Shown here: positions 1,598 to 33,108 of the stretch, in pieces
Layout of the letters: the number at the start of each line of letters is the position of its first letter
How positions within the stretch are numbered: the first letter of the stretch is position 1
DNA from: an uncultured bacterium
GTDB taxonomy: Bacteria > Chlamydiota > Chlamydiia > Chlamydiales > SM23-39
Length of the DNA: 64,000 nucleotides
Reading direction: 5' to 3'
Assembly (NCBI GenBank): GCA_963716985.1
Contig: OY970323.1
Location: forward strand, 1,536,001-1,600,000
Made by a program: the position numbers and the translations under genes
Notes under the pieces: generated by a model
What the model was told of the DNA's origin: nothing
Database searches by the model: none
The model's input: only the letters and a program-made list of their open reading frames with translations

Positions 1598-2629
1598 ATG
1601 ACTTTAGATTGCCTATTCGGTAAAATGCCCTCTTGTATGAATAGACTTCCCTCGCCCAAAGAGCTCAAACAACTCTATCCTGTAGAAAAAAACGATGAGC
1701 TGTTTCTACAAGAGACAAGAGACAATATTCAAAGGATCCTTCGCGGGGAAAAAAAACAAAAACTCCTCATCGCTGGCCCTTGCTCCATCCATGATGAATC
1801 CTCTACCTTAGAATATGCAGATCGATTTTTAGCGCTCTCGGAAAAGGTAAAAAATTTCTTTTTCGTGCTTCGGTTTTTTATCGAAAAACCAAGAACATCT
1901 CTTGGATGGACAGGCTTTTTGAACGACCCAATGCTCGACGGATCTTGCCGGATAGATCGCGGCCTCATGCTTTCGCGCAAACTCTTAAAAGAGCTTGTGC
2001 AAAAAAAGATTCCTTGCGCAATGGAGTTTTTACACCCCTCTTTCGCACCCTATTTTACCGACCTGGTCTCTTGGGGCGTCATTGGATCGAGAACCAGCTC
2101 CTCGCAAATCCATCGGCAGCTCGCCTCTTCTCTGCCCTTTCCCGTCGGGTTCAAAAACAGCCACTTTGATGCGATCGACATCACCCTGCAAAGCATCCGT
2201 GCAGCAAGATCTTCCCATGTGTTTCCCTCGATCGATGAGGAGGGCAGAATTGTTTCTTGCCGCAGCAAAGGCAATCCCTTTGCCCATGTCGTTCTTCGAG
2301 GCAATCGAGAAGGCCCAAACCATGACGAAAAGAGCATTCATGACCTGCTAAAAAAGAGCGCATCTTTGGGATTTGCCCTTCCGATCATCGTCGATTGCTC
2401 CCATGCAAATTCTTCGAAAAACCTCGAGAGGCAAAAAGAATGTTTCCGACGTGTAGTTTTGCAAAAAAATGAAACGATTTTAGGCTATATGCTCGAAAGC
2501 CATCTTTTTTCCGGCAATCAGAGCCTATCTTCCGGCTCGGCGCAGTATGGCATTTCCGTGACCGATCCCTGCCTCGGCTGGGAGGAGACAAAAGATTTGA
2601 TCCTCGCATGCGCACACTCTATCGCATAA
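1598..2629 (+). CDS. 3-deoxy-7-phosphoheptulonate (DAHP) synthase, class I
   Basis: GPCSIHD, EKPRT, IGSRT, GFKN, HVVLRG, VDCSHANS, YGISVTDPCLGW motifs (aroF/G/H type). Confidence 0.93.
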   Translation: MTLDCLFGKMPSCMNRLPSPKELKQLYPVEKNDELFLQETRDNIQRILRGEKKQKLLIAGPCSIHDESSTLEYADRFLALSEKVKNFFFVLRFFIEKPRTSLGWTGFLNDPMLDGSCRIDRGLMLSRKLLKELVQKKIPCAMEFLHPSFAPYFTDLVSWGVIGSRTSSSQIHRQLASSLPFPVGFKNSHFDAIDITLQSIRAARSSHVFPSIDEEGRIVSCRSKGNPFAHVVLRGNREGPNHDEKSIHDLLKKSASLGFALPIIVDCSHANSSKNLERQKECFRRVVLQKNETILGYMLESHLFSGNQSLSSGSAQYGISVTDPCLGWEETKDLILACAHSIA

Positions 2630-4487: not shown

Positions 4488-6662
4488 ATGAAAAATAAGC
4501 CAAAAGCCGCTCACAAAAAAAATCATGCCTCCCAAGGTTCAGAATTGAAACAGATCCGCAAGCGCACAGGAGAAATCCTGCCCTTTGATGCCCACAAGAT
4601 CACGCTTGCGATCGCAAAAGCCGGAAAAGAAGCGGGAGAGCTGGATGAAAAAGTCGCAAAGACTCTCACAATCAAAGCACTACAACTAATAGAGAAAATA
4701 TCAGCCGAAAACATTCCCACTGTGGAAGAAGTTCAGGATTGCGTCGAAGAAACCCTTTTGAACTCTGCCTACAAAAAAACGGCCAAGGCCTACATCATCT
4801 ATCGAGAGCAGCATGCGAAGATTCGAGAAATTGCCTCCCAGGCAGGAGTCGACCTCATTGATCAATACCTCAACAAACTCGACTGGCAGGTCAAAGAAAA
4901 CAGCAACATGTCCTACTCTCTGCAAGGGCTGCACAACTATGTGGCCTCGGAAACAAGCAAGCTTTATTGGCTCAACAAAATCTATCCCTCCCCTATCAAA
5001 AAAGCCCATATCGAAGGCGCCTTTCACATTCATGATTTAGGGGTTCTTTCCTCCTATTGCGTCGGCTGGGACTTAAAAGATCTTTTGTCGGTCGGCTTCC
5101 AGGGAGTTTCAGGAAAAATACAGAGCAAACCGCCCAAGCATTTGCGCAGCGCTCTTGGCCAAATCGTCAACTTTTTCTACACCCTTCAAGGAGAAGCTGC
5201 GGGAGCACAGGCCTTTTCCAATTTCGACACGCTTCTCGCCCCCTTCATTCGCTATGATAAACTGAACTATGAGCAGGTCAAACAGGCCATGCAAGAGTTC
5301 CTCTTCAATATCAACATTCCCACGCGCGTTGGCTTTCAAACGCCGTTCACCAACATCACGATGGACCTAAAACCCTCTTCCCTCTATGCACAAACTCCCG
5401 TCATCATCGGCGGCGAGATGCAAAAAGAAACCTATGGAGAGTTTCAAGCAGAAATGAACCTCCTCAACCAGGCCTTTTTAGAAGTCATGATGGAGGGAGA
5501 TGCCAAGGGGCGCGTCTTCACCTTCCCCATTCCCACCTACAACATTACAAAAGATTTTGATTGGGAAAATCCAGAGCGCGATCTTCTCTGGAAAGTCACG
5601 GGAAAATATGGCATTCCCTATTTTGCGAATTTCGTAAACTCTGATATGAAGCCGGAAGATACGCGCTCGATGTGCTGCAGGCTCCGGCTCGATCTCTCCC
5701 AGCTCTCCATGCGGGGCGGCGGACTTTTTGGCTCCAATCCCCTCACGGGCTCTATCGGCGTTGTGACCATCAATCTTCCCAGGATCGGATATCTCTCCAG
5801 CAATAAAGAGGAGTTCTTCTCTCGCCTGGGCGATCTTGCAGACATTGCCAAACAAAGTCTCGAGATCAAACGAAAAGTTCTCGAACAGCTCACGGAAACG
5901 AGCCTCTATCCTTACTCAAAATTCTATTTGCGCGCAGTGAAAGAACGCTCGGGCTGCTACTGGAAAAACCATTTTTCCACCATCGGCCTTGTCGGCATGA
6001 ACGAAGCCTGTTTAAATCTTCTTAAAACATCCATTGCCACAGAAGAGGGCAAGGCGTTTGCCGTTGAAGTTCTCGACTTCTTGAGAAACAAGCTCGCCGA
6101 TTTTCAAAAAGAGACGGAAAACTATTACAACTTGGAAGCAACTCCGGCAGAAGGAACGAGCTTTCGCTTGGCGCTCATCGACAAAAAACGCTATCCCGAT
6201 ATCCTCGTGGCCAACGAATCCATGGTCAAAAATGGCGCCGAGCCCTTCTATACCAACTCCACCAACCTTCCCGTCAATCATACCGACGATCTGTTCGAAG
6301 CGCTCAACCACCAAGACGATCTGCAAAAACGCTACACGGGAGGCACCGTTCTTCATGCCTATCTCAACGAGCGCATCGATAACGTGTCTGTGGTCAAAAA
6401 TCTCATTCGAAAAGTCTTCGAAAGCAAATCGCTTCCCTACCTATCTCTGACTCCCACATTCAGCGTTTGCAGCTCTCATGGCTATCTGAACGGAGAACAG
6501 CATTCTTGCCCGCACTGCGGCACCAAATGCGAGATCTATTCGCGAGTGGTCGGCTATTTGCGTCCCGTAGAACAATGGAATGCAGGCAAGCAATCGGAAT
6601 TTGCCATCAAGAAAAACTATAGCATCCCACACAGTGGCCTTTTGCCACAAAACCCTGAATAA
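4488..6662 (+). CDS. nrdD: Anaerobic (class III) ribonucleoside-triphosphate reductase with ATP cone
   Basis: N-terminal ATP cone, HIHDL, SMCCRL, EATPAEG, CxxH/CxxC zinc site, glycyl-radical loop YSRVVGYLRPV. Confidence 0.96.
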   Translation: MKNKPKAAHKKNHASQGSELKQIRKRTGEILPFDAHKITLAIAKAGKEAGELDEKVAKTLTIKALQLIEKISAENIPTVEEVQDCVEETLLNSAYKKTAKAYIIYREQHAKIREIASQAGVDLIDQYLNKLDWQVKENSNMSYSLQGLHNYVASETSKLYWLNKIYPSPIKKAHIEGAFHIHDLGVLSSYCVGWDLKDLLSVGFQGVSGKIQSKPPKHLRSALGQIVNFFYTLQGEAAGAQAFSNFDTLLAPFIRYDKLNYEQVKQAMQEFLFNINIPTRVGFQTPFTNITMDLKPSSLYAQTPVIIGGEMQKETYGEFQAEMNLLNQAFLEVMMEGDAKGRVFTFPIPTYNITKDFDWENPERDLLWKVTGKYGIPYFANFVNSDMKPEDTRSMCCRLRLDLSQLSMRGGGLFGSNPLTGSIGVVTINLPRIGYLSSNKEEFFSRLGDLADIAKQSLEIKRKVLEQLTETSLYPYSKFYLRAVKERSGCYWKNHFSTIGLVGMNEACLNLLKTSIATEEGKAFAVEVLDFLRNKLADFQKETENYYNLEATPAEGTSFRLALIDKKRYPDILVANESMVKNGAEPFYTNSTNLPVNHTDDLFEALNHQDDLQKRYTGGTVLHAYLNERIDNVSVVKNLIRKVFESKSLPYLSLTPTFSVCSSHGYLNGEQHSCPHCGTKCEIYSRVVGYLRPVEQWNAGKQSEFAIKKNYSIPHSGLLPQNPE

Positions 6663-6663
6663 T

Positions 6664-7356
6664 ATGATGAGAATCGGAGCCATTCAGCGTCTTTCATTGA
6701 TTGACTATCCTGGGAAAATCGCAGCCGTGCTTTTTTCCCAGGGCTGCCCCTTCTCTTGCCCCTTTTGCCACAATCCCCATCTCGTCGACTCGAAGCAGTT
6801 CACAAAACCCATCTCCTTGAACGAAGTGAAAAGCTTTCTTTGTTCTAGAAGAAATGAGATTGAAGCGATCGTTTTTTCGGGAGGAGAGCCAACGATCCAC
6901 CTAACTCTTCCTCTCTTGATCCAAGAGGTCAAAGAAATGGGCTTTCTCACCAAATTAGATACGGCAGGGACAAATCCTGAAATGATCGAATCGCTCTTAA
7001 AAAACGATCTTCTCGATTACATTGCCATGGACATCAAAGGTCCGCTTGCCCGCTATGCAGAAATAACAAGAACAGCCTTTCCCTCCGATCACATCGAAAA
7101 AAGCATACGGCTGATTGTAGAGTCGCACATCCCTTATGAATTTCGCTCCACTATCCTTCCATCGCTTCATCAAAAAGAGGATATTCTTGCCATGGCACAA
7201 ATGATATCCCATGCCCGTCTCTATGTGCTCCAAACATTTCGTAATCATGCCACACTCTCTTCCCACTTGAAAAACGCGGCAAGTTTTTCTGAAGAAGATC
7301 TGCTCTTGCTTCAAAAGATGATCTCTCCCTTTGTCCAAGAATGCTACATTCGATAA
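6664..7356 (+). CDS. nrdG: Class III RNR activating radical SAM enzyme
   Basis: SLIDYPG, GCPFSCPFCHN, FSGGEPT; ATG 1 nt after nrdD stop. Confidence 0.93.
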   Translation: MMRIGAIQRLSLIDYPGKIAAVLFSQGCPFSCPFCHNPHLVDSKQFTKPISLNEVKSFLCSRRNEIEAIVFSGGEPTIHLTLPLLIQEVKEMGFLTKLDTAGTNPEMIESLLKNDLLDYIAMDIKGPLARYAEITRTAFPSDHIEKSIRLIVESHIPYEFRSTILPSLHQKEDILAMAQMISHARLYVLQTFRNHATLSSHLKNAASFSEEDLLLLQKMISPFVQECYIR

Positions 7357-7868
7357 AGATAGATCCTCGTTCTTCCAAGATCTTTTGCCTCAATCATTCG
7401 GATGGGAGTCCATCCGCGAAAAGCAAAGGTATGGCTCAAAACATAAGATCCCTTCGGAAGTTCGGCCGTCAGCTTTTCTTTGAGCTTTTCCATAGCCTTT
7501 GGAAAAAGATAGCAAGTCACAAGGCCCGCTTTTGCGAAAGATATCTCAAAAAAATCTTTTCTTTGGATGGACAAGTTCTCTCTTTGCGCCGCTTTTTTCC
7601 AAAGAAGAGACCAAAGATAGGGAACATATGAGAGCTCATAGGCAAAAACTCGGCTCGATGAAAATTTTTTAGAAAGAAAGATGGCCAGATGGCCAAAGCC
7701 GCTTCCCAACTCAAAAATTGTCCCCTCGAATGAAGGGGGCAAAAAAGAGAGCAGCTCTTTTCGCACGCTTCCGGATGTCGGCATGGGGGATATCCCCACC
7801 CGCAAAGTGGTCCAAATAATGGAAAGAGCAGATATCCACAAGACAAGTAGGAAGAAAAAGCAAACCAT
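7344..7868 (-). CDS. Membrane-anchored class I SAM-dependent methyltransferase
   Basis: N-terminal TM, ISPMPTS, ELGSGFG, YLFP motif. Confidence 0.8.
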   Translation of the reverse strand: MVCFFFLLVLWISALSIIWTTLRVGISPMPTSGSVRKELLSFLPPSFEGTIFELGSGFGHLAIFLSKKFSSSRVFAYELSYVPYLWSLLWKKAAQRENLSIQRKDFFEISFAKAGLVTCYLFPKAMEKLKEKLTAELPKGSYVLSHTFAFRGWTPIRMIEAKDLGRTRIYLYRM

Positions 7869-7971
7869 TGTGTTAAAAATTGTTTTGATCCTTTCCCTTT
7901 TTTGAAGGGGCTCTTTCCTTTAAAAAATAGAGGCTCTTTGAGATAATATCCGCAAAAACACAAATTTTTCT

Positions 7972-9204
7972 ATGAATAAAAAGATCGCGGAGGTTTCTGC
8001 GCCCGCGGGATCATTTGCCTCTCTGCAAGCTGCCATTCAGGCAAGGGCCGATAGCATTTATTTCGGCGTCCACCCCTTGAACATGAGAGCGGGCGCTACG
8101 GATTCTTTTACCTTAAATGACATCGCAAAAATCGCCACGATCTGCCAAAGGGAAGGAATCAAAACCTATCTGGTGCTCAACACCATTCTCTACGATGAAG
8201 ACCTCCGTCTGATGCAGCAAATTTGCAAAAAGGCCAAAGAATCCGACATCTCTGCAATCATCGCCTCGGATATGGCAGCCGTCAGTTATGCAAGATCGCT
8301 CGACCTCTCTGTCCACGCATCCACCCAGCTCAACGTCAGCAATAGAGAATCCCTTCGTTTTTTCGCACAGTTTGTCGATGCATGTATTCTGGCAAGAGAG
8401 CTCACGCTTTCTCAGATCGCTTCGATCTGCCACACGATCGAAAAGGAAAAGATTTGCGGCCCCTCCGGAAAACTTTTACAAATCGAGCTCTTTGCTCATG
8501 GCGCTCTTTGCGTGGCAATTGCCGGCAAATGTTATATGAGCCTTGCGCAGTACAACACCTCCGCCAATCGGGGCGACTGTTTGCAAGCCTGCCGGCGCAA
8601 ATATCGCATAGCAGACGAGGATACGGGACAAGAGCTTCTCATCGATAACCAATACGTTCTGTCTCCCAAAGATCTCTCGACCATCGACATTGTAGACAAA
8701 ATCATCCAAGCAGGCGTTTCGATCCTTAAGATCGAGGGAAGAGGAAGAAGCGCCGAGTATGTCTTCACGGTCGTCAAAACCTACAAAGAAGCTCTCCAAA
8801 GCGTCCAAGAGAAAACATTCGGAGAAGAAAAGCGCCTCCTCTGGAAAGAAGAGCTCAAAAAAGTCTACCATCGGGGTTTTTGGGAAAACGGCTATTATCT
8901 TGGCCATCAACTCGGCGCATGGAGCGCCTCTGCCGGCTCGCAATCGACGGAAAAAAAGATTTTTGTCGGGACCGTCGATCACTACTTTGGAAAATCAAAA
9001 ATTGCCGAAGCTCTGATCGAGCGGGATTCGTTAAAAGAAAACGACACCATTCTCATCATGGGGAATACCACCGGAGCTCTCAGGGCTTCCATTGCAAGCC
9101 TCTACTTTCACTCGCCCAAAGAAGAACAAAAGGTGCGCGTCACCTTTCCCCTCGCAACAAAGGTAAGGAAAAATGACCAGATCTATCTTTTGCAAAAGCG
9201 ATAA
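7972..9204 (+). CDS. Peptidase U32 family Fe-S hydroxylase (TrhP/PrtC-like)
   Basis: APAGS, HASTQ, LAREL, HGALCVAIAGKCYMS..NRGDCLQACR (4 Cys), LSPKDL, KIEGR; C-terminal beta-rich extension. Confidence 0.92.
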   Translation: MNKKIAEVSAPAGSFASLQAAIQARADSIYFGVHPLNMRAGATDSFTLNDIAKIATICQREGIKTYLVLNTILYDEDLRLMQQICKKAKESDISAIIASDMAAVSYARSLDLSVHASTQLNVSNRESLRFFAQFVDACILARELTLSQIASICHTIEKEKICGPSGKLLQIELFAHGALCVAIAGKCYMSLAQYNTSANRGDCLQACRRKYRIADEDTGQELLIDNQYVLSPKDLSTIDIVDKIIQAGVSILKIEGRGRSAEYVFTVVKTYKEALQSVQEKTFGEEKRLLWKEELKKVYHRGFWENGYYLGHQLGAWSASAGSQSTEKKIFVGTVDHYFGKSKIAEALIERDSLKENDTILIMGNTTGALRASIASLYFHSPKEEQKVRVTFPLATKVRKNDQIYLLQKR

Positions 9205-9427
9205 AAAAGCCATTCGAAAAAAGATCGACCTTTTGGACGGCAAGATCATCGCGCTTCTGGAAAAACGCTTTTTTCTTGTTTGCCATCTCAAAGATCTCAA
9301 GAAAAAGATGACGGACAGGGAAAGAGAAAATGAGATCCTTGCAACAATCAATTGCCCGTTCATTCAAGAAGTCTATCGCACGATCTTCACATGCTCCAAA
9401 AAAATGCTCAAGAAAATGAGGGGTTAA
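9173..9427 (+). CDS. Monofunctional chorismate mutase (AroQ/CM type II)
   Basis: IRKKIDLLDGKIIALLEKR...DRERENEIL pattern; RBS AAGGA before ATG; overlaps U32 gene by 32 nt. Confidence 0.75.
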   Translation: MTRSIFCKSDKKAIRKKIDLLDGKIIALLEKRFFLVCHLKDLKKKMTDRERENEILATINCPFIQEVYRTIFTCSKKMLKKMRG

Positions 9428-9437
9428 AAAATCTAAG

Positions 9438-10373
9438 ATGGATCCTTATTTTCGCAGCTATAATTCCTATTTGCAAGAGCTTTTCAAAACGCGGGTATAT
9501 AAGATCTCTATCGACGGCGGCTTTTCTTGTCCCAATCGCGACGGGACAAAGGCGGTCGGCGGCTGCATCTATTGCGATGAAAAGGGCTCTTCTTCCCGCA
9601 CGCACTCTTGCGGCGACTCGATTCGAGAGCAGGTGGTGAAAAATATTCAGGTGCGCAAATCCCGCTACAAAGCAGAAAAATTCATAGCCTACTTTCAATC
9701 CTTCTCGAACACCTACGCGCCAGCCACGATGTTAAAAAAACTCTATGATGAGGCCATCTTTTCTTCTCCCGATATCATCGGTCTTTCCATCTCGACCAGG
9801 TCCGACTGCATCGATGAAGAAAAACTCGAGCTAATTGCGAGCTATGAAAAACATCTGCCCTACCTGCAAATCGAATATGGCCTGCAATCCATCCACAACC
9901 GCACATTACATCGCATCAACCGCCAAGAACAGTTCGAGGACTTTCTCTCAGCTCTCTCTTTAACAAGGAAATTCCCCATCCACCTATGCGTGCATGTCAT
10001 TTTGGGCCTTCCGGGAGAAACGAAAGAAGATATGATGCAAACGGCCGAAATGCTTGCAACACTTGCAATCGAGGGGGTAAAGATTCACACGCTCGTTGCC
10101 ATGGAAAAAACGCCTCTTGCAAAGCAGTATCAAGAGGGTCAATGGCAGCCCCTTGGCTTTGAAGAACACATTGCTCTGCTTGCCGACTTTCTGGAAAGAC
10201 TCCCTGCGCATACCATTATCCACCGCCTCTCCGGCAATGGCCATCCACAACATCTCGTAGCTCCTCTCTGGATGAAAGAGAGAAAAAAAGAGATTCTTCC
10301 TTGTCTTACAAAAGAATTTTGTAAAAGAGATACTCGACAGGGATCCCGATCCCCCCCCAGGGAAATTGCATGA
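9438..10373 (+). CDS. TIGR01212 (YhcC/YtqA) radical SAM protein
   Basis: GFSCPNRDG....GGCIYC, AYFQSFSNTY, TRSDC, EYGLQS, HVILGLPGE, GVKIH. Confidence 0.92.
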   Translation: MDPYFRSYNSYLQELFKTRVYKISIDGGFSCPNRDGTKAVGGCIYCDEKGSSSRTHSCGDSIREQVVKNIQVRKSRYKAEKFIAYFQSFSNTYAPATMLKKLYDEAIFSSPDIIGLSISTRSDCIDEEKLELIASYEKHLPYLQIEYGLQSIHNRTLHRINRQEQFEDFLSALSLTRKFPIHLCVHVILGLPGETKEDMMQTAEMLATLAIEGVKIHTLVAMEKTPLAKQYQEGQWQPLGFEEHIALLADFLERLPAHTIIHRLSGNGHPQHLVAPLWMKERKKEILPCLTKEFCKRDTRQGSRSPPREIA

Positions 10374-10477: not shown

Positions 10478-10939
10478 CTACGCTGCGGCTTTCCACCCTT
10501 TTGGGGTATCTTTGAAAAGTATCGTATTAGAGTTCAATTGATCTTCCAAATTGGCAATTTTCTTAAGAATTTCTGAGATTTTACCATGTTGATTAACGGT
10601 TTTTTCAGCGTAGAGCAACCTCACCAAAGACTCAGAAGATTTGGGTATATTGGTTTTACCATTTTCCCATCTCCGAATAGCTTGCTCGCTAACTCCCAAC
10701 AAAGAAGCTAAGATATTCTGAGACATCAACATTTCATGCCTAAGAAATCGTAGTTCATCTCCAGACAGATCCTTCTTCAAAGAAACAAGATGCATTCCTA
10801 TAGCGCGATGCAAGCCGTCAAGATCGTGGATAGAAACCGCCTCCCCTCTATCGGTTTTGATAATCTTATAACCATTAGCGAGGTAGATATTATCCAGTCC
10901 ACATTCTTTATACTGGTAAAAACTGTGGTCCATATTCAT
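10478..10939 (-). CDS. XRE-HTH antitoxin-like protein
   Basis: YQYKECGLDNIYLANGY N-terminus, ELRFLRHEMLMSQ..LA.LLGVS...IRRWENG HTH; downstream of DUF4258-like gene. Confidence 0.8.
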   Translation of the reverse strand: MNMDHSFYQYKECGLDNIYLANGYKIIKTDRGEAVSIHDLDGLHRAIGMHLVSLKKDLSGDELRFLRHEMLMSQNILASLLGVSEQAIRRWENGKTNIPKSSESLVRLLYAEKTVNQHGKISEILKKIANLEDQLNSNTILFKDTPKGWKAAA

Positions 10940-10944
10940 TCCTC

Positions 10945-11268
10945 CTATATTACGGTGATGACTTCTAAGTAATCCTTTTTAACGACCACAACTACCTGCA
11001 CCGATCTCCCTGCAGTATAACGTGATAGTTTAATTCTCCAATCACCATATTGGTCAAGACTCGGGCCGTCTATACCTTTTCCCGACCTTAACACATCAAA
11101 AACTTGACGCATCGTCACTTTTCTTTCTCTCATACGCTGCTGATTATGAGGGAAATCGAAAAAGACTCTACTCGAATCCTTTGCCATCTCATGCACCACC
11201 CTAACAAACTCCTCCAACGATTGAGGAAGCTCTTTTGGGGTTGGAAAAGAAAACGCTTCACTCATCAC
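10945..11268 (-). CDS. DUF4258-like putative toxin
   Basis: H.QQRMRERKVTMRQVFDVLRSG and C-terminal VITVI. Confidence 0.72.
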   Translation of the reverse strand: MMSEAFSFPTPKELPQSLEEFVRVVHEMAKDSSRVFFDFPHNQQRMRERKVTMRQVFDVLRSGKGIDGPSLDQYGDWRIKLSRYTAGRSVQVVVVVKKDYLEVITVI

Positions 11269-13276: not shown

Positions 13277-14277
13277 GTCGAGTAGCGCAGGGGAATCTCA
13301 CCCCCACGCTCTCACGGAACCGTACGGGAGCCTCTCGGCTCATACGGCTCTTATTATTCAGCCGCTGGGAGTACACCCAGTTGCCAGTGAGCAAACAGTT
13401 TGGGTTCTCGTTTTGCGATTTTACCCATCCAGTGTATTGCTCTCCGACTATGGCCTCTCAGTTTCTTGTATTTCCTCGTCGCCCACCTTGCTAGTGTACG
13501 GTTTACCCTTCTGAACGTTGGATACAACTCCGATTTATAGTATTTACCATAGTGGTTAATCCAACCTCTCATGATTGGATTGAACATCCTCGATAAATCT
13601 CCGAGTGTTTTGTCACTGCGCAGATGCATCCGCCAACTTCTCATCGTGCCCGCCATCTTCTTCTTCGCTTTATTACTCACTGCCGGACTGAAATTGACGA
13701 AGTACTTTCCATAACGATTTTTCGATCGTCTGGCTCTAAAAGTATACCCTAGAAAATCGAACTTTTCATTTGGGTATCTCTTTCTTCTATCGTCATCCTT
13801 GCAATAGACGATTTTCGTCTTCTCAGGATGTAATTCCAGTTTGCATTCCGCTAAGCGTTCTGCGATGGCGATCTTTATTTTGTTAGCTTCTGCCTCTGTT
13901 TTGCAATGTACCACTCCATCATCCGCATATCTTTCAAATGGATTTTGTGGATAATTCCTTTTCATCCATACGTCGAATGCATAGTGGAGAAAAAGGTTCG
14001 CCAATAGCGGGCTTATCACACCCCCTTGCGGCGTTCCTTTATCTCGGCCTATAAGCGCTCCTTCCGCATTTTGAGCTGGTGCTTTTAACCACCGCTCTAT
14101 GTACATCAGGATCCACTTACTATCGGTGTGTTTCTTCACAGCTTTCATCACGAGTTCGTGATCCAAATTGTCAAAGAACCCCTTGATATCCAGATCAATA
14201 ACATAGTTGTATCTCCAGCACCTTTCTCGTGCTTTCCCTACCGCTTCTATTGCTGATTTTCCGGGTCTATATCCAAA
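13277..14277 (-). mobile_element. Group II intron B (class D-like), 5'-truncated, nested in intron A
   Basis: DV GAGCCGTATGAGCCGAGAGGCTCCCGTACGGTTC (13350-13317), DVI ending CTACTCGAC at 13277. Confidence 0.9.
13354..14274 (-). pseudogene. Intron B reverse transcriptase/maturase, N-terminus missing
   Basis: GYRPGKSA, DLDIKGFFDN, GTPQGGVISPLLAN, RYADD, FDFLGY, NPIMRGWINHY; no endonuclease domain. Confidence 0.92.
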
Positions 14278-14407
14278 GGCTGAATTAGATAAGAATGAGT
14301 ATCAGCTGGGAAAAAAAGTAAGCAACGGGCTGATAAGACTGGTAAATATTGCTTATCGCAAGAGTGATGAAAAGTGGAATTATACGATCATTCCACGCCA
14401 CATATGA
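14276..14407 (+). pseudogene. ISAzo13-like transposase C-terminal remnant
   Basis: KAELDKNEYQLGKKVS...EKWNYTIIP resembles the ISAzo13 family C-terminus. Confidence 0.65.
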
Positions 14408-14458
14408 GTCGCGGACGAATTTTTTTTCGAAAAATGGGCAAAGAGAATACTAAAATAT

Positions 14459-15504
14459 ACGCGATGTGCGAGTTTTTCAAAGCAAAAAATCACACGTAAA
14501 AAAATAATTGAAAAATGACAAGTCCTTACTGCACACTGTTTTGCGACAAAACAACAACAGGAGTTCAGGACATGTCGATTGATGATTTTATCATAACCAC
14601 CTTTTGTTTGATAGATGATGAGATGAAGAAGGTTCTTGCAGACGAGAAATTTCGTCAAAGAGGTCCCTCGCCTAGATTGAAAGACAGCGAGGTTATTACG
14701 ATGGAGGTCGTTGGAGAATTTTTTGGAATGGACCGTGACAAAACCATTTGGGAATATTTCAAAAGGCACTGGTTGCATTTCTTTCCAAATATTCCTGCAC
14801 GTTCGAATTTTGTCAGGCAAGCGGCCAACCTTCATGTAGTAAAGCGATTGTTACAAGAGAGTTTAGCAACTGACCTACATGCTCTTTCTGATTCATTGCA
14901 CATAATAGACGGGCTTCCTATTCCAGTTTGCAAATTTGCCAGAGCTCACTTTAGCAAAAATTTCAAGGGCGACGCTGCATATGGATATTGTGCTACAAAA
15001 AAAGAGCACTTTTATGGTTTTCGAGGCCATGTTGTCATCAGTTCAATAGGGGTGGTGACAGCAGCTACATTCGCCAAGGCAAACATTGATGAGCGCGATG
15101 TGTGTCCTGAGATTGTGGAAAAAATCGGAGGGCTTTTGTTGGGAGACAAAGGTTTTATACGACCTGGATTGAAAGAGTTGCTCAAAAAACAAGGGTTGTA
15201 CTTGCAAACTTCGCTGAGAGAAAATATGAAAGATGAAAGACCGAAGAAATTTTTGAAATGGCTGGTAGGGACTCGGCGACTGGTTGAAACAGTTATAGGG
15301 CAGCTCAATGATAGATTTCGGATTGAAAAAGTATGGGCGCGAGATTTATGGCATCAATTTTCAAGATTTTGGAGAAAATTACTGGCGCATACTGTCGGCA
15401 TTAAACTTAATGTAAACGCAGGGAACGAGCCTTTACAGTTTGACCAGTTGCTTTGTTCTTAAAAGCATAGGCGATTTTTCGCTTTATAAACTCGCACATC
15501 GCGT
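14459..15504 (+). mobile_element. IS982-family element, apparently intact
   Basis: 17-bp perfect IR ACGCGATGTGCGAGTTT; 7-bp target duplication AAAATAT (14452-14458, 15505-15511). Confidence 0.93.
14572..15462 (+). CDS. IS982-family transposase
   Basis: DSEVIT, IIDGLPIPVC, FYGFRGH, GDKGF, RRLVETVIGQL. Confidence 0.93.
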   Translation: MSIDDFIITTFCLIDDEMKKVLADEKFRQRGPSPRLKDSEVITMEVVGEFFGMDRDKTIWEYFKRHWLHFFPNIPARSNFVRQAANLHVVKRLLQESLATDLHALSDSLHIIDGLPIPVCKFARAHFSKNFKGDAAYGYCATKKEHFYGFRGHVVISSIGVVTAATFAKANIDERDVCPEIVEKIGGLLLGDKGFIRPGLKELLKKQGLYLQTSLRENMKDERPKKFLKWLVGTRRLVETVIGQLNDRFRIEKVWARDLWHQFSRFWRKLLAHTVGIKLNVNAGNEPLQFDQLLCS

Positions 15505-15766
15505 AAAATATTTATTTATAAATCAAGGGGTTGTGCGACTTAAAATTTGGTTCTTCCTTAACTGTCGCAATTGCTCTGCTGCTTCTATAACTGTTGCTTT
15601 AATGGGCTTTGTAGGGTATTTTTTCATGACGCGTCTCCTTATGATTGCGTTTGTTGATAGCTAGCAATTTTAAAGGCGCGTCATTTTTTTAGCTTCATGA
15701 ATCCCCGTTATTTCCTGTGGCGTAGGGCAAAGCCATTGAGGAGCTTACCCACAACCATTATTTCAA

Positions 15767-16066
15767 CTAAGAAGAACGGCGATCTAAATTAAAGTGAACT
15801 AATATCCCCGATATAATCAGCACAGCAATCATTAGAAAAATCGAACAATTCGTGACCATTGGAAGACCTACTACTACGTTTTTTACTGTATACAACAACA
15901 CTAAAGACGTAAAAGCAGCTCCTGCAACATAGGACATCGTTCGAAATATTTTTTCGGCGAGATCTTTCACACGCCTACTAAAAGAATCTGAGCCAAATCC
16001 CAAAAAAGATTTTAAAGAAGGAATAGTAGTTGTGGATTTATGCGAAAAAACTCCAAATACACTCAT
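15767..16066 (-). CDS. Small protein with bilobed hydrophobic domain (Inc-like)
   Basis: RBS AGGAG; Ser/Thr-rich N-terminus; two adjacent hydrophobic stretches. Confidence 0.55.
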   Translation of the reverse strand: MSVFGVFSHKSTTTIPSLKSFLGFGSDSFSRRVKDLAEKIFRTMSYVAGAAFTSLVLLYTVKNVVVGLPMVTNCSIFLMIAVLIISGILVHFNLDRRSS

Positions 16067-16086
16067 AAAATCTCCTATAATAGAAT

Positions 16087-16503
16087 TTAATCTGAAAACA
16101 TGCTTGACAAACTTTTATACAACAAATATGTCCCACATAAAAAACAACCAACAGAACTAATGAATGCCATTGGTTCGCATATATTTCTTAGATCTGTCAG
16201 TTTACAAGCAGATGCACTATAGAAAAATCCCAAAGAAATAGCAAAAAGCGCCACACCACCAAATAATTTGGCAGTATGATTTTGAGGTGGAGATGGTGCC
16301 TCTTTTGCAAAAAAATAATTATAAGCGCCCACTAAGCTTGAACCAATCCCCACTACAACCTGATACCTATCTACAAAATCATTTATCGTTTTAAATGCCG
16401 TCCATGCAACCCTGAAAGCAGTTTTCAATGCATCGAAGATTGTTGCAACGACTATTTCCGTGGGATGCGTTAAAGCTCCTAAACTATTTAACGACACAAC
16501 CAT
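16087..16503 (-). CDS. Hypothetical membrane protein (Inc-like)
   Basis: RBS GAGG; about three hydrophobic segments; co-oriented with 15767-16066. Confidence 0.55.
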   Translation of the reverse strand: MVVSLNSLGALTHPTEIVVATIFDALKTAFRVAWTAFKTINDFVDRYQVVVGIGSSLVGAYNYFFAKEAPSPPQNHTAKLFGGVALFAISLGFFYSASACKLTDLRNICEPMAFISSVGCFLCGTYLLYKSLSSMFSD

Positions 16504-16581
16504 ATGCCCTCGCTTTTTTTAGAATTAGGAAAACTTTTAAAGAGTTTATCTTTAATTAAAAATTTATCTCCACAAATTTTT

Positions 16582-17188
16582 GTAACTTCTCAAAAAGATC
16601 TTGTAACTAGCTAAGGACCAGATGGTAAAACTCGAGATTTTTGATCAATAAGATCTTTCAGGCGAGGAATTCCCTTTGCATTTAAAAGCCTATCTTTCAA
16701 ATAGTCACAAAAACTTACACCTAATTTCATGCAGGTTTTCTTGAGACTGGCAAAGGCGTCTCTTGCTTTGCGGCCAGCTTCACTCCGTGTGCTACCTGAG
16801 ATTTTTCTTCGCTTCGCATATTCACGGATATCCCTTTCGCAGTCATTGTTGTGCAGAGGAATGAACGGATACTGAAGAATAAGCAAGAGCCCTTCTCTTC
16901 TTGATCGAGTATTTGCAAGGAGTGAATTTAGAGCCGCACTTCTATATGCTTTGCCAAAAATTTGATCGAATTTTTCTGATAGCTTTTTCTGCAGAAGAAG
17001 GGTCGGATTTTTCTTATATTTTTTCAGTGCTTCATAGAAATCCCAAATATCCGCACGAACTATTTCGATCTCTGTTTTCTCAGCATCTGACAGAGGAATT
17101 AGTTTTCGATAAAGGCGTTCTTCATGGACCCAGCAGAGTCCATTTAGCAAGATGGCAAATTGTCTAGCAGCATCACTTATCGTAATTA
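16582..17188 (-). mobile_element. IS66-family remnant (3' end of transposase plus one IR)
   Basis: Terminal GTAACTTCTCAAAAAG resembles the 29117 copy; ISDAARQF..LCWVH..PLHNNDCERDIRE; cut off at the IS630. Confidence 0.88.
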
Positions 17189-18306
17189 TTAACCCGACAG
17201 GCAAATAAGAGACTCAAGCAGCGTACTTAACCGCTGAAGCTCGAAACAAATTTCGGATCGTCTCTGGTTCTTTTTGCAGCTTGGCGAGAGTCGAATGCAA
17301 ATGCCCCGATAGTTCCTTCTGATTTCTTGACATCTTTTTCCGATGAGTTCTCCCCTTCACCGTGTTGTTCAGATACTCATCTGGGTTATATTCAGGAGCG
17401 TAGGGAGGAAGAAAAAACAACTCGATTTCATCTTTATGCTTGTTTACCCAGGACTGAACTTTCTTTCCATGATGCACCTTCAGGTTGTCTAGGATCAAAA
17501 ATATCTTTCTGTCTTGGCCTTTGATCAGTCTTCGTAAAAATTTCAGAAAAATTGCAATGTTCATGCCCCCTTCGTAAACCATGAATCGAAGATCTCCTCG
17601 ATTTGTTACGGTTGAGATCATGCTCACTGAAAATCGTTTTCCTTTCTGATTGAGAACAGGAGTTTTTCCCTTCGGCGCATAACTCTTGCCTACCTGGCAA
17701 GTGGAACATACTCTGGCTTCATCCCCCCATTGTATTTCAGCGTTTTCCACTTTTGCGCGAGAGGAAATGGACGGATATTCTTCGTTGAGCCATTTCTCTA
17801 TTCGTTGTGGCTGTCGCTCATAGAAGCGCCCTAAGGGTTTTTGAGCCGTATCGCCCCATGCGCGCAAGTAAGCACCGACCGTGGATTTAGCTAATTTGAT
17901 CCCAAAGCAATGTTGAATGAGATGCTGCACAGACTGCCGAGTCCAAAGTACGAACGACATTTTGAGTTGTTCGGGACATTTATCCGTGATGAATCTTTGA
18001 ATGATTTTGCAGTGAAGAGCCGATAATTTCGCCTGATCTCCGGAGCGCCGGCCTCGACGCTTTTTTTTAAGCCCCGATTCTCCCTTTGTGCGATAAGCAG
18101 TTATCCATCGATAAACCGAAGTTCTTAGCACTCCCAGAGCCTGAGCTGCTTCTTTCACAGGCTTACGATCTACAACGACCATTTTGATGGCACGTCTGCG
18201 AAGAGCTTCCTGTGTGTCTTGACCTAATTTTCTCCTATCGCCTAATTGCATGAAGAATTGCTAACACACTCTTCAATTTTTGTCTCTTATTTGTTTAGCG
18301 GGTTAA
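17189..18306 (-). mobile_element. IS630-family element
   Basis: Imperfect IRs TTAACCCGacaggCAAATAAGAGAC / TTAACCCGctaaaCAAATAAGAGAC flanked by TA on both sides. Confidence 0.9.
17214..18251 (-). CDS. IS630-family transposase
   Basis: N-terminal HTH, WGDE, LILDNLKVH, LPPYAPEYNPDE. Confidence 0.93.
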   Translation of the reverse strand: MQLGDRRKLGQDTQEALRRRAIKMVVVDRKPVKEAAQALGVLRTSVYRWITAYRTKGESGLKKKRRGRRSGDQAKLSALHCKIIQRFITDKCPEQLKMSFVLWTRQSVQHLIQHCFGIKLAKSTVGAYLRAWGDTAQKPLGRFYERQPQRIEKWLNEEYPSISSRAKVENAEIQWGDEARVCSTCQVGKSYAPKGKTPVLNQKGKRFSVSMISTVTNRGDLRFMVYEGGMNIAIFLKFLRRLIKGQDRKIFLILDNLKVHHGKKVQSWVNKHKDEIELFFLPPYAPEYNPDEYLNNTVKGRTHRKKMSRNQKELSGHLHSTLAKLQKEPETIRNLFRASAVKYAA

Positions 18307-29116: not shown

Positions 29117-30835
29117 GTAAGTTCTCAAAAACGTCTGGGAAAAACTAAAAACTTGCCGGCGATGCCTGTGATTTTTGTTCAATAAGATCTTTCATCCGGG
29201 GAATTTTTTTTGCATTTACAAGCCTGTCTTTCAAATAGTCACAAAAACTGATGCCTAATTTCATGCAGGTTTTCTTGAGACTTGCAAAAGTGTCTCTGGC
29301 TTTGCGGCCAGCTTCGCTTCGTGTGCCTCCAGAGATCTTTCTCCGCTTTGCATATTCACGGATATCTCTTTCGCAGTCATTGTTATGAAGAGGAATAAAT
29401 GGATACTTAAGGACGAGCAAGAGCCCGTCTTTTCTTGACCGGGTATTCGCAAGAAGTGAATTTATGGCTGCACTTTTGTATGCTTTGCCGAAAATCTGAT
29501 CGAATCGATCTTCAAGAGTTTTCTGCAGGACAAGAGTCGGTTTTTTCTTGTATTCTTTCAGCGCTTCATAAAAATCCCAAATATCTGAACGAACCATTTC
29601 AAGCTCTATTTTTTCAACATCTGATAGAGGAATCAGTTTTCGATAATGACGTTCTTCATGGACCCAACAAAGCCCATTTAGAAAAATTGCAAACTGTCTT
29701 GCAGCATCACTTATCGTAATCAGAAATGGGTTGACTCCTTTTTCCAAAGCCCCGCCTAAAAGAGCCGCTTCAGTAGCAATTCTACGATCTTTTTCAGATT
29801 CGATTTTTTGTTTTTTAAGAAAATTTTCCCAAAAAGCGCTTTCTTGAAATTGTTTACCTTTATGCTTCTCCAGAGCTGCGAGAGATTTTTCTCCAATCCC
29901 ATGCTCGAAAGCATAATTTATGGCCTCTTCCGTTAGAGCATACAATTCTTCCTTGCCCTGCAAGATTTTTAAAAAATTGATTCGACTTTTAGAACCTGTG
30001 CTTTCAAAGTAGGTAAACAAAGGACTGCCGATGGCTGTGCAGTATCCGTTCTTCCCATCGTGTCTTGCACCCGTATCATCTGCATTAAGAAATTTACTGA
30101 AAACCAGGCCGGCTTTGAGAATCTCTTCTTTTTCTTGGTGAAAGCTTTCTTTGTTCTGAATCAGAATATTGCTGAGTTGCGCCGGGGAAATGTCGATTCC
30201 CATTTCATAAAGCTGTTCTAACAAAAGAGGCTCTGTCACATGGCATTGATGATATTGCGAAAGGCAATAAGCAATCAGTTCCGCCCCAAAATGACCTTGT
30301 TGATATTCCGGGGGAAGTTCTCCACGAATACGTGACCCGTCAGGACTCAAATAGACCGCAAGGCGAAATTGTATTTCAAGAGACTCTATGCGGAGATCTT
30401 GAACGTTGTAGGTATCATAGCCCTTAAAAATCGATCCGGCAGGAATATTGTTGGGCAAAACTGTCTTTTGCTCTTTTTTTCTTTGTCTGCGAGAAGAAGA
30501 ACGATGAATATCAGAGTTTTTGGGAGGCGGCTTATTTTTTGCATCATCAGCTGTTCTTGAAGGGGATAATTTTGGCCGTGGTTTTTGACCTTTAAGTTTT
30601 GCAATTTCATCTTTGAGATGAGCGTTTTCTTCCGTCAATTCCTGAATGATCCTAAGGCAAACCTGAAGCAATTCGACCAACTTGTTGATGGTTGGATCTA
30701 GAACAAGATTCTCGGGAATTTCAGGAATTTGCAGTTTCATTCCTGAAATCATATATGGAAATAGCCTTAAAGACAAAATAAAAATTTAAGTTTACTTGAG
30801 GCGTTATGCTTTACCAAGGGTTTTTGAGAACTTAC
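29117..30835 (-). mobile_element. IS66-family single-ORF element (ISBst12-like organisation)
   Basis: 16-bp IR GTAAGTTCTCAAAAAC; 8-bp duplication GAATTTCG (29109-29116, 30836-30843). Confidence 0.93.
29145..30776 (-). CDS. IS66-family transposase
   Basis: N-terminal coiled coil, ADDTGARH, ISDAARQF, LCWVH, PLHNN..ERDIR. Confidence 0.9.
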   Translation of the reverse strand: MSLRLFPYMISGMKLQIPEIPENLVLDPTINKLVELLQVCLRIIQELTEENAHLKDEIAKLKGQKPRPKLSPSRTADDAKNKPPPKNSDIHRSSSRRQRKKEQKTVLPNNIPAGSIFKGYDTYNVQDLRIESLEIQFRLAVYLSPDGSRIRGELPPEYQQGHFGAELIAYCLSQYHQCHVTEPLLLEQLYEMGIDISPAQLSNILIQNKESFHQEKEEILKAGLVFSKFLNADDTGARHDGKNGYCTAIGSPLFTYFESTGSKSRINFLKILQGKEELYALTEEAINYAFEHGIGEKSLAALEKHKGKQFQESAFWENFLKKQKIESEKDRRIATEAALLGGALEKGVNPFLITISDAARQFAIFLNGLCWVHEERHYRKLIPLSDVEKIELEMVRSDIWDFYEALKEYKKKPTLVLQKTLEDRFDQIFGKAYKSAAINSLLANTRSRKDGLLLVLKYPFIPLHNNDCERDIREYAKRRKISGGTRSEAGRKARDTFASLKKTCMKLGISFCDYLKDRLVNAKKIPRMKDLIEQKSQASPASF

Positions 30836-31279
30836 GAATTTCGGTACTGATCCTCATCACCTTTATTTCCTCTCTTTTTGCGCCTCTCGTCTTTTTGGCA
30901 GGTTTTTGGGGAGCTTTGATCGGCATCATTCTCTGGGGCATCGGAATCGGATCCCAAGAAACGGTCATGAAAGCGCTTGTTGCTATTTTTGTCGCCCCGA
31001 ACAAAAGAGCTTCCGCCTATGGTCTTTTGAATTTCGTCTTCGGGTCCCTCTGGTTTATAGGAAGCGCTTTAATGGGTATTCTCTATGATTACTCTCCCCT
31101 CTATGTCGTCCTCTTTTCCCTCTTCACGCAGCTAGCGTCTCTTCCCCTTCTTTTCTGGGTCAAAAGACAAAAAATGTAAACCTTCTTTCTTTCGCAATCA
31201 TTCTCCCAATAAAACGACCTATGTCTTGACGGAAATACCAGTTCCTTTTATTAGGAAATCAGAATCTTTAGGAGATGTT

Positions 31280-32998
31280 ATGCAACGTTTTTCCCTTTTC
31301 TTGATCGCCCTGCTTTTATGGCTGGGAAATCCTCTTTTTTCTTGTACCACTATTCTGGTCACGAGGGAAGCGACTGCCGATGGCTCTTGCTTTGTCACCC
31401 ATTCTGACGATAACGAATTGCAAGATGAACGCATTATCTATGTTCCTGCCCAAGATTACCCCGAAGGGTCCAAAAGAGAGCTCTATCCTTATCTGGAAAA
31501 TTATCCCCGTTATGTAGGCAAAAGCAGAGGGCCGAATTACGAAAACCCCTCCTTCCCTCCAACGGAATCTCTCGGATCGATCGACCAGGTTCCCCACACT
31601 TATGCCTATTTTGACGCTGGCTACGGGATCATGAATGAACACCAGCTTTCCATCGGCGAAAGTACCTGCGTTGCAAAATTTTCTTTCGACCCGGAAAAGG
31701 GCAAGCGCATCATCGACATCGCAGAAATGTCGCGCATTGCTCTCGAGCGCTGCACCAATGCAAAAGATGCGGTCCTGCTCATTGGCCCTCTTGCCGAAAA
31801 ATATGGTTATTATGGCTGGGGAGAATGCCTCTTGATTGCGGATAAGACGGAAGGATGGGTCTTTGAAATCTGCTCGACTCCGAGCGGAACCGGTGCGATC
31901 TGGGTTGCAAAAAAGGTTCCTGACGGGGAGGTTTTTGTGAGCGCAAATGAGTTTCGCATCCGAGAAATCGATCCGAAAGATCCGAACATCCTCTACTCTT
32001 CCAACCTTTTTCAAGCCATTCAAGAAGCAGGCTGGTGGAGTCCTGATAGCAAAAAATCCTTGGATTGGCTAAAAGCGGTCAGCCCCGGAGAATATAATCA
32101 TCCCTACTACTCTCTTCGACGCATTTGGCGCGTACAAACCCTCCTCAATCCTTCTCTTCACCTAAGTCCTTGGGTCGAAGACGGATTTACCAAAGACTAC
32201 CCTTTTTCCATAAAACCCGCTCACAAACTCTCCCTGCAAGAGGTGATCCGCCTTCATCGAGACTACTATGAAGGTACAGAATTTGATCTGAGAAAGGGCC
32301 TTGCGTCCGGACCTTTTGGCTCTCCCTATCGCTGGATGGGAAAAGAAGATCACTATCATGAATTTGGCGTTTTAAAGGAAAATCCTATGGCTGAATCTAC
32401 GTTGAAAAAAGAGGGTGCTTGGGAAAGACCTATTTCCGTCTACTATATTGGCTATTCCTGGGTGTGCCAAATCCGTCCCTGGCTTCCGGATGCAGTCGGC
32501 GGCATTGCCTGGATCAGCTTGGATCAGCCGGCCACAAGCTATTACACGCCTTTTTACGCAGGAATTCAAAACCTTCCCGATTGCTACCAGAAAGGAAGCC
32601 CCTATTCTCTCAAGAGAGAGTCGGCTTGGTGGGCAGCCAATGTTGTCTCTAACTGGGCAGATGTCAAATTTTCTTATATCTATAAAGACATCCAGGCAAA
32701 GCAAAAAGAAGTGGAAAGAAAAATCTTTACCGCCATTGCCGCCGTTGATAAAAAAGCCATGGCCCTCTATCAGAAAGATCCCAAAGCCGCGCGAGAATAT
32801 CTGACCGGCTATTGCAATACAACCGCCAGCGAGATGAGCAAGACCTGGTGGTCTTTTGCCGATTTTCTTGTCGAAAAATATATCGATGGCTACGTCAATA
32901 AACCCAACATACGAGACCGGGTGGGCTATCCAAAAGAATGGGAAAAAGCGGTTGGCTACGGGAAGGGCCCCATTTCTTACCAAAAAAATATGCAATAA
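31280..32998 (+). CDS. Secreted C69-family dipeptidase (Ntn hydrolase)
   Basis: Signal peptide then CTTILV...DGS, MNEHQLSIGEST, YSLRRIW, ERPIS. Confidence 0.9.
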   Translation: MQRFSLFLIALLLWLGNPLFSCTTILVTREATADGSCFVTHSDDNELQDERIIYVPAQDYPEGSKRELYPYLENYPRYVGKSRGPNYENPSFPPTESLGSIDQVPHTYAYFDAGYGIMNEHQLSIGESTCVAKFSFDPEKGKRIIDIAEMSRIALERCTNAKDAVLLIGPLAEKYGYYGWGECLLIADKTEGWVFEICSTPSGTGAIWVAKKVPDGEVFVSANEFRIREIDPKDPNILYSSNLFQAIQEAGWWSPDSKKSLDWLKAVSPGEYNHPYYSLRRIWRVQTLLNPSLHLSPWVEDGFTKDYPFSIKPAHKLSLQEVIRLHRDYYEGTEFDLRKGLASGPFGSPYRWMGKEDHYHEFGVLKENPMAESTLKKEGAWERPISVYYIGYSWVCQIRPWLPDAVGGIAWISLDQPATSYYTPFYAGIQNLPDCYQKGSPYSLKRESAWWAANVVSNWADVKFSYIYKDIQAKQKEVERKIFTAIAAVDKKAMALYQKDPKAAREYLTGYCNTTASEMSKTWWSFADFLVEKYIDGYVNKPNIRDRVGYPKEWEKAVGYGKGPISYQKNMQ

Positions 32999-33108
32999 GA
33001 AAAAGGCTGAAAAAGTGCCCGCTCTCAAGTTCATGTGCACCTCGTAGCGCACGTTGCAATCGCTATAGAGCAAAAATCTCTTCTTTTTTCGATCCTTTTT
33101 TCCATAAT

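Follow-up and report, generated by a model that had tools for sequence, protein, structure and literature searches.

The window analysed here, a stretch of 64,000 nucleotides (G000:C1:1536001-1600000) from the single 2.07 Mb contig of an environmental bacterium of the phylum Chlamydiota (genome G000), contains adjacent genes for a U32-family Fe-S protein, a small chorismate mutase-like protein (CM) and a TIGR01212 radical S-adenosylmethionine (SAM) protein, next to the genes nrdD and nrdG for anaerobic ribonucleotide reduction. We consider it fairly probable that this block retools the cell for anaerobic life, with NrdDG, a prephenate-fed U32 hydroxylase likely acting on uridine 34 (U34) of tRNAs, and MnmL. 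Neighbouring genes would encode O2-independent Fe-S or radical enzymes that take the place of three O2-dependent housekeeping reactions. NrdDG would take over from aerobic ribonucleotide reduction. The U32 protein would hydroxylate C5 of a pyrimidine, most likely of U34 in the tRNAs of four-codon boxes, to give 5-hydroxyuridine (ho5U), and would stand in for the O2-dependent TrhO of nearly all other chlamydiae. Prephenate, its oxygen donor, would be produced locally by the small AroQ mutase, the translation of which is coupled to that of U32, from chorismate supplied by the complete shikimate pathway of the genome. MnmL would strip the carboxymethyl group from 5-carboxymethylaminomethyl-2-thiouridine (cmnm5s2U) at position 34 without O2, and MnmM, encoded elsewhere, would then make 5-methylaminomethyl-2-thiouridine (mnm5s2U). 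The observations that carry this explanation are gene identities by family score, a conserved linkage, and patterns of presence and absence; from them we infer a prephenate dependence of the U32 subfamily, a mutase activity and a tRNA target. The chlamydia of the window seems to live without oxygen.

The original prediction had described three tightly coupled genes, and their arrangement was confirmed from the coordinates of the open reading frames and the sequence. All are encoded on the plus strand. The U32 gene (7972..9204, 410 amino acids) was assigned by Pfam Peptidase_U32 (PF01136) with 201 bits at a cut-off of 22.4. It overlaps by 32 nt (9173-9204) with the gene of an 84-residue protein of the short AroQ (CM_2) type (9173..9427); the predicted match to Pfam CM_2 (PF01817) exists, with 31.5 bits at a cut-off of 27. 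A gap of 10 nt (9428-9437) separates the CM gene from the TIGR01212 gene of the MnmL/YhcC type (9438..10373, 311 amino acids), which scored 325 bits against NCBIfam TIGR01212 (cut-off 180) and contains the domains Radical_SAM and Radical_SAM_C. The nrdDG neighbours (4488-7356), situated directly 5' of the U32 region, and the upstream synthase for 3-deoxy-D-arabino-heptulosonate 7-phosphate (DAHP) were likewise found as described. NrdD, the anaerobic class III ribonucleotide reductase (4488..6662, plus strand), was identified by Pfam NRDD (651 bits) with an ATP-cone and by NCBIfam NF006126 (1063 bits, cut-off 548). The frame of its radical-SAM activase NrdG (6580..7356, plus strand; NCBIfam TIGR02495, 204 bits, cut-off 131) probably has its true start downstream of the first ATG. 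The DAHP synthase is of type I (AroFGH type; 1598..2629, plus strand; Pfam DAHP_synth_1, 190 bits; NCBIfam NF009395, 370 bits, cut-off 343) and catalyses the first step towards chorismate and prephenate. Co-transcription of the block genes is inferred.

Linkage was studied in 41 related genomes, 11 with and 30 without a U32 protein of the window type, and in a second chlamydial sample of 400 scored genomes of the phylum. Four loci cut by contig ends (G018, G008, G387, L030) were left out of the count. The CM gene was located directly 3' of the U32 gene in 21 of the 25 assessable chlamydial loci. Nine of the 11 U32-bearing relatives have a contig that continues downstream, and CM follows directly in all nine; 15 further loci of the subfamily with downstream DNA came from the phylum sample, 12 with CM and three without (G123, G110, G225). 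The 32-nt overlap of U32 and CM recurs in L041 and L038. The full block nrdD-nrdG-U32-CM-TIGR01212 is present in 16/25 chlamydial loci. TIGR01212 is preceded in some loci by an oppositely oriented alpha/beta-hydrolase gene (Pfam-checked in L036, L039 and L040), and DAHP synthase homologues are found 5' of the nrdDG-U32 block in the window, L041, L036, L038 and L047. Non-chlamydial loci were selected on U32 similarity alone. Among these, the Fermentibacterota show the gene order U32-aroA-aroC-CM on one strand, confirmed by Pfam in L018, L027 and L034; L019, L021, L023, L024 and L032 have a matching order and matching gene sizes, as judged without a Pfam scan. The U32 and CM genes overlap in L029 and L033. 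No CM was located near U32 in L022 or in six archaeal loci. The U32-CM linkage is not due to chance. The expectation that the linkage is conserved in relatives thus held in the chlamydial loci and extended to a second phylum.

Genome G000 and four relatives contain one U32 gene and one CM_2 match each, the latter always the U32-linked copy. Prephenate dehydratase (PDT) and prephenate dehydrogenase (PDH) were found in none of the 11 U32-bearing relatives, in searches that scored all 14 control genomes. The check for pheA- and tyrA-type genes named with the original prediction thus came out in its favour. Where relatives do encode PDT (G002, G016, G029, G033), the gene lies immediately beside a separate, high-scoring canonical CM_2, a PheA-type arrangement. 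PDT was also found in none of five Fermentibacterota genomes with the U32 cluster, whose completeness is not known. CmoA, another of the named checks, did not exceed the cut-off in any of the five genomes searched (G000 and four relatives). Since neither PDT, PDH nor CmoA was found, the U32 protein is the only recognisable prephenate consumer, the sole one present among the known prephenate users that were searched for. The genes for chorismate synthesis are at hand in G000: aroA-aroK-aroC-aroB-aroDE are located at ~709-715 kb, and the DAHP synthase of the window is the only copy of the genome (single tblastn match). In characterised members of the superfamily, prephenate is the oxygen donor of UbiUV (PMC10990095) and genetically required for TrhP (PMC6599085) and RlhA (PMC5727448). 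The core of the original prediction, a mutase that feeds the U32 protein rather than phenylalanine and tyrosine synthesis in an O2-independent wobble-uridine module, is supported and came through each computational test named with it; the roles of the TIGR01212 protein and of the divergent methyltransferase are corrected below.

The assignment of the small protein to the chorismate mutases was strengthened by its relatives. Related CM proteins score 36-66 bits over the full CM_2 profile, and a profile of 18 CM homologues, 29-59% identical to the window CM, matches chorismate mutases of the PDB (1ybz, 1.7e-19; 1ecm, 2.7e-9). Catalytic residues were mapped by alignment to 1ecm, the Escherichia coli mutase (EcCM), whose active site we take to be formed by R11, R28, K39, D48, R51, E52, S84 and Q88. 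The equivalents of R11, R28, K39, D48, R51 and E52 are invariant in 18/18 homologues, and a serine occupies the S84 position in 15/18. Six invariant residues over such a range of identities argue for purifying selection. Seven of the eight equivalents are present in the window CM, the exception being the Q88 position. The chlamydial proteins have shortened H1-H2 and H2-H3 loops, and 1ybz shares the short H2-H3 loop. A mutase activity of the window CM is plausible. Of the predicted stand-alone mutase, the CM_2 family membership is supported by the score; the copy in the window lacks the Gln88 equivalent, so that its activity stays a prediction.

By its sequence the U32 protein falls into an uncharacterised subfamily; its architecture resembles that of TrhP, and RlhA is the closest to it in the catalytic domain. 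PF01136 matches 23 of 23 homologues, and four cysteines (C180, C187, C203, C207; CX6CX15CX3C) are invariant in all of them and align with the cysteines of RlhA. They are candidate 4Fe-4S ligands of a predicted Fe-S protein. Profile comparison with hhalign was collinear with TrhP over 387 columns, covering residues 1-437 of 453 of TrhP including the C-terminal barrel/PF16325 region; the match to RlhA (1.6e-43) comprised only residues 5-306 of 653. The barrel family itself, Peptidase_U32_C (PF16325), matches 4/23 homologues, not the window protein. An AF2 model (mean predicted local distance difference test score 77.9) has a TIM barrel, a low-confidence cysteine loop (177-235) and a confident C-terminal beta-barrel (327-409). 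An identity as TrhP, RlhA or UbiU/UbiV was rejected: the NCBIfam scores remain below the cut-offs for TrhP (NF011996, 143 versus 534), UbiU (137 versus 440) and UbiV (59 versus 275), DUF3656 is absent, and there is one U32 protein per genome. DUF3656 (PF12392), which defines RlhA (PMC5727448), was detected in E. coli RlhA and neither in the window protein nor in its 23 homologues. A tree placed 26 members in a clade separate from the four E. coli paralogues (Shimodaira-Hasegawa approximate likelihood ratio support 81); its branches are long and do not show which of these paralogues is nearest. The tree proposed for placing the protein therefore yielded a separate clade, and no placement within TrhP, RlhA or UbiU. 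Most of the twelve U32 subfamilies lack an assigned function (PMC10990095). More than 8000 protein clusters, some share of them from the subfamily, match the window protein at E 1e-20 or better. The best 120 matches are 50-78% identical; many of the matches with a source name are named Woesearchaeota or Nanoarchaeota. No match was obtained in a PDB sequence search, and none of the viral contigs contained a relative of the subfamily. A Foldseek search of the PDB with the AF2 model returned TIM barrels of a generic kind and 5d88, a U32 fragment, none of them informative on the substrate; the ESM Atlas held only generic 'U32 peptidase' or 'collagenase' clusters.

The target was approached by the distribution of TrhO, which in E. 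coli is an O2-dependent tRNA U34 hydroxylase working beside TrhP (Sakai et al. 2019, PMC6599085). TrhO (PF17773) was found in 0/11 U32-bearing relatives versus 28/30 relatives without U32, so that the check for trhO named with the original prediction also supports it. In the phylum sample U32 was present in 29 and TrhO in 356 of the 400 genomes, distributed as U32 only (21), TrhO only (348), both (8) and neither (23). TrhO is thus absent from 21 of 29 U32-bearing genomes and from 23 of 371 others. The two enzymes are nearly complementary, a relation that is new here, and the pattern looks like a non-orthologous replacement of TrhO by U32. Four of the eight genomes with both belong to family f27 (G089, G107, G194, G315; 4/4 sampled) and have U32 matches in frames of 693-895 amino acids. 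The protein of G089 (L062, G089:C21; ~875 amino acids) is weakly similar to the window U32 (3e-39); these long proteins probably belong to another, perhaps RlhA-like, subfamily. In G258 the match is a fragment. A ~140-nt palindromic inverted-repeat insert, resembling a miniature inverted-repeat transposable element, splits the U32 frame of G120 at ~6150-6289 (L051, G120:C22), and this U32 may be a decaying copy. G123, another genome with both, has no CM near U32. The complementarity with TrhO and the TrhP-like architecture point to tRNA U34 as the target, and therefore ho5U34 is the best guess for the U32 product. The tRNA set of G000 (41 tRNAs; alanine, valine and proline boxes read by GNN and UNN only) is compatible with U34 derivatives of the 5-oxyuridine type (xo5U) and does not discriminate.

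Several results weigh against the proposed prephenate-fed U34 hydroxylase, on the side of the mutase as well as on that of the target. The CM_2 match of the window protein covers only profile positions 1-50 of 80. The Q88 equivalent is glutamine in 11/18 homologues and leucine in the window CM. Gln88 matters for chorismate mutase catalysis, and judging by this leucine the catalysis of the window protein may be weak or lost. Four chlamydial loci have a U32 gene and no CM nearby, the three of the phylum sample and L015 on a contig from a metagenome-assembled genome. None of the 120 best U32 matches was annotated by Pfam as a fusion with CM, and 57 longer CM_2 proteins were CM-PDT, CM-PDH or CM-aro fusions, never U32-CM, which is weak evidence. 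Archaeal orthologues ~50% identical to the window protein (loci L016, L017, L020, L025 and L031 in the DPANN-type genomes G041-G045) occur in genomes without a CM_2 match (0/5) and without chorismate synthase (0/5), the completeness of these genomes being not known; an endogenous prephenate supply is therefore not universal in the subfamily. From such observations it could be argued that the adjacency of U32 and CM has no functional meaning, the CM being a remnant or an ordinary aromatic enzyme whose product is not used by U32: CM_2 proteins are common biosynthetic enzymes, the window copy is degenerate at the Gln88 position and some U32 orthologues do without any CM. Such a coincidence is very improbable in view of the linkage in the chlamydial loci and the U32-aroA-aroC-CM unit of a second phylum, the lack of another recognisable prephenate consumer in these genomes and the six catalytic residues that stayed invariant.

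With respect to the target, the catalytic domain is nearer to RlhA (34% identity, 153 bits, E 4e-45, residues 7-302 in BLASTP) than to TrhP (25%, 97 bits), UbiU being 25% identical; an rRNA target is therefore conceivable. No ho5U-processing enzyme was found in the searches, with CmoA below the cut-off and Methyltransf_3 giving only weak partial matches; the latter search, proposed for TrmR, provided no clear TrmR. Neither enzyme occurs in 23 genomes, and eight have both. Lifestyle by itself might explain the anticorrelation with TrhO, since anaerobes shed O2-dependent enzymes in any case, and the counted genomes are related and not independent. A prephenate-fed hydroxylase in which the substrate is not tRNA U34 but a C2501-type site of the 23S rRNA, another RNA site or a small molecule is accordingly to be considered, and we regard it as possible, though rather unlikely. 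In both pairwise and profile comparison RlhA matches the catalytic domain best, an enzyme processing ho5U was not found, and the subfamily is, by source names, very common in DPANN archaea, in which, to our knowledge, xo5U is not known. On the other hand the window protein and its homologues lack the domain that defines RlhA, the alignment with RlhA goes no further than residue 306 of 653 while that with TrhP spans the protein from end to end, and the complementarity of U32 is with TrhO, a tRNA enzyme. The U34 hydroxylase remains the preferred explanation.

The third gene of the block received a separate function. Without O2, MnmL/YhcC takes the carboxymethyl group off cmnm5s2U and so substitutes for the MnmC oxidase (bioRxiv 10.64898/2026.05.18.725915). 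TIGR01212 was above the cut-off in 10 of 11 U32-bearing relatives, the 11th copy being cut by a contig end, and in none of the 30 other relatives. MnmM (PF06962) is encoded in G000 (G000:C1:1018973-1019374, 134 bits) and was above the cut-off in 34/41 genomes, with or without MnmL. A search of G000 for the MnmC methyltransferase domain gave no match. The TIGR01212 protein is best explained as MnmL, predicted to convert cmnm5s2U to 5-aminomethyl-2-thiouridine (nm5s2U) in an O2-free step separate from U32. The original prediction had placed it in the wobble-uridine module; the family assignment supports a wobble-uridine enzyme, in a parallel MnmL pathway and not in a step downstream of U32. A stronger form of that idea, with U32, CM and TIGR01212 in a single pathway to one new wobble-uridine modification, could draw on the perfect co-occurrence of U32 and TIGR01212 among the 41 relatives, on the common putative operon in 16 loci and on the known relatives of both proteins, which act at C5 of U34. 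It is improbable nonetheless. TIGR01212 is fully explained as MnmL because it exceeds the equivalog cut-off and the partner MnmM is present. The known substrates are different tRNAs, cmnm5s2U being found in those of the glutamate, glutamine and lysine type and xo5U in those of four-codon boxes. TIGR01212 does not adjoin the U32-CM unit outside the Chlamydiota, and in G013 and G035 U32-CM and TIGR01212 are unlinked, located on separate contigs and both retained. The distribution of nrdD is almost identical (11/11 U32-bearing relatives and 2/30 others, G004 and G026), so that a shared anaerobic lifestyle suffices for the co-occurrence. In our reading the block consists of three parallel O2-free replacements that were selected together and do not constitute one pathway.

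A more speculative, and in our estimate unlikely, extension concerns the CM itself: the trimmed protein would be a dedicated, perhaps bound, prephenate-making subunit of a very widespread, so far unassigned U32 subfamily that took over the hydroxylation of tRNA U34 from TrhO as lineages turned anaerobic. Where the Gln88 equivalent is lost, the CM may depend on U32 for activity or act as a module binding prephenate or chorismate. The DPANN orthologues would, within this extension, have to import host prephenate or may use another oxygen donor.

Further features were annotated around the block. A SAM-motif protein of 174 amino acids is encoded divergently from the U32 gene (7344..7868, minus strand). 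It is small and membrane-anchored and has a GxGxG motif of the SAM type; the Pfam scan gave no match, and the best family score, 59 bits for an NCBIfam protein-lysine methyltransferase with a cut-off of 200, is weak. The original prediction had mentioned it as a divergent SAM methyltransferase. As a candidate part of the module it was rejected, as homologues occur in six relatives without U32 and were not found in five with U32; with no co-occurrence with U32, the protein is probably unrelated to the module. A promoter-like site (TTTAAA, 17 nt, TG-GATAAT; 7919..7947, plus strand) is located 25 nt 5' of the U32 start. It is weak evidence, with eight such sites observed in the region versus 6.7 expected from shuffles, no enrichment, and the promoter and terminator scan of the region gave counts no higher than in shuffled sequence. 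The 3' end of the block is marked by a toxin-antitoxin-like pair on the opposite strand (10478-11268), an MqsA-type helix-turn-helix protein adjoining a DUF4258 protein. Other toxin-antitoxin-like genes of the window encode an AbiEi-like antitoxin (812-1441) and an HTH_37 protein with a Gp49-like protein (42733-43486). Mobile DNA is dense at 13354-18251 and 29145-34601, with a 5'-truncated group II intron reverse transcriptase/maturase (13354-14166, minus strand), transposases of the types IS982 (14515-15462), DDE_3 (17214-18251) and DDE_5 (33237-34601) and IS66-type fragments at 16611-17204 and 29145-30776.

In three Fermentibacterota-type loci, a B12-binding radical-SAM protein of ~480-510 amino acids flanks U32 or U32-CM (L027:7247-8686, L028:397-1929, L029:4464-5930). 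As a recurrent partner of U32-CM outside the Chlamydiota it was dismissed, since it was seen in these three loci only and not in other Fermentibacterota loci. Two eukaryote-like domains were noticed: a RING-finger protein adjoins MnmL in G012 (L039:3270-4385), and a protein with the catalytic domain of poly(ADP-ribose) polymerases is encoded 5' of the aro operon in G000 (L045:2359-3858; ~705.4-706.9 kb).

No enzymes other than U32 proteins are known that would draw the oxygen of a hydroxyl group from an organic donor, prephenate. So far the evidence for this donor comes from genetic work in E. coli and a single labelling study (PMC10990095). Here, genomes without phenylalanine and tyrosine synthesis keep a CM joined to U32, and in a second phylum U32 heads an aroA-aroC-CM cluster. 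The retained CM and the aro cluster are independent natural evidence for prephenate as co-substrate of a further U32 subfamily. The exchange for TrhO would give this subfamily a concrete function, which may apply widely among the matching clusters, and it marks chlamydiae living without oxygen. The archaeal orthologues without a chorismate pathway make the universality of the prephenate donor directly addressable. In passages of published U32 work (PMC10990095, PMC6599085, PMC5727448, PMC11574389) and in literature searches aimed at it, no description of a U32-CM gene pairing was found, and the text of the YhcC preprint (bioRxiv 10.64898/2026.05.18.725915) makes no mention of 'U32', 'TrhP' or 'prephenate'. 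New is the combination of a putative new U32 subfamily, a prephenate source dedicated to it and its suggested part as anaerobic substitute for TrhO.

Among the known systems TrhP is closest in architecture. TrhP (YegQ) of E. coli and TrhP1/TrhP2 (YrrN/YrrO) of Bacillus subtilis perform a prephenate-dependent, O2-independent hydroxylation of tRNA U34 (PMC6599085). The window protein and TrhP have in common the U32 domain, the four cysteines and, by profile and model, a C-terminal beta-barrel, are collinear over the aligned columns and would share the proposed prephenate dependence; the complementary distribution suggests a counterpart of TrhO. In contrast to TrhP, the window protein lacks a ~55-residue insertion, falls into a clade of its own at 25% identity and far below the TrhP cut-off, and has a dedicated CM gene in its operon; proteins of its type replace TrhO in most genomes, whereas TrhP coexists with TrhO. 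RlhA (YdcP), the 23S rRNA ho5C2501 synthase with genetically shown Fe-S and prephenate dependence (Kimura et al. 2017, PMC5727448), is nearest in the sequence of the catalytic domain, but the window protein is without DUF3656 and without the long C-terminal extension (410 versus 653 amino acids). The O2-independent ubiquinone hydroxylases UbiU-UbiV, which act with UbiT, are the sole case of prephenate oxygen transfer shown by labelling (PMC10990095). They share the superfamily and the cysteine motif at 25% identity to UbiU, and while UbiU and UbiV form a heterodimer, the single U32 gene per genome here leaves no partner. The CM has the three-helix CM_2 fold of EcCM (1ecm) and of the archaeal short form (1ybz) by profile, and the chlamydial proteins carry a further deletion of four residues in the H1-H2 loop as compared with both. 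The window CM further differs in that it stands alone, in a genome without enzymes of the phenylalanine and tyrosine branches, translationally coupled to U32. Another known system is the AroQ-delta chorismate mutase of Mycobacterium tuberculosis (PDB 2w19, 5ckx), which requires a partner enzyme for full activity. With MnmL (YtqA; bioRxiv 10.1101/2023.12.21.572861) and YhcC the TIGR01212 protein shares the equivalog score and both domains, and MnmM is present in the genome; it differs by its operon with U32-CM next to nrdDG and, within the Chlamydiota, by its limitation to the nrdD-bearing subset.

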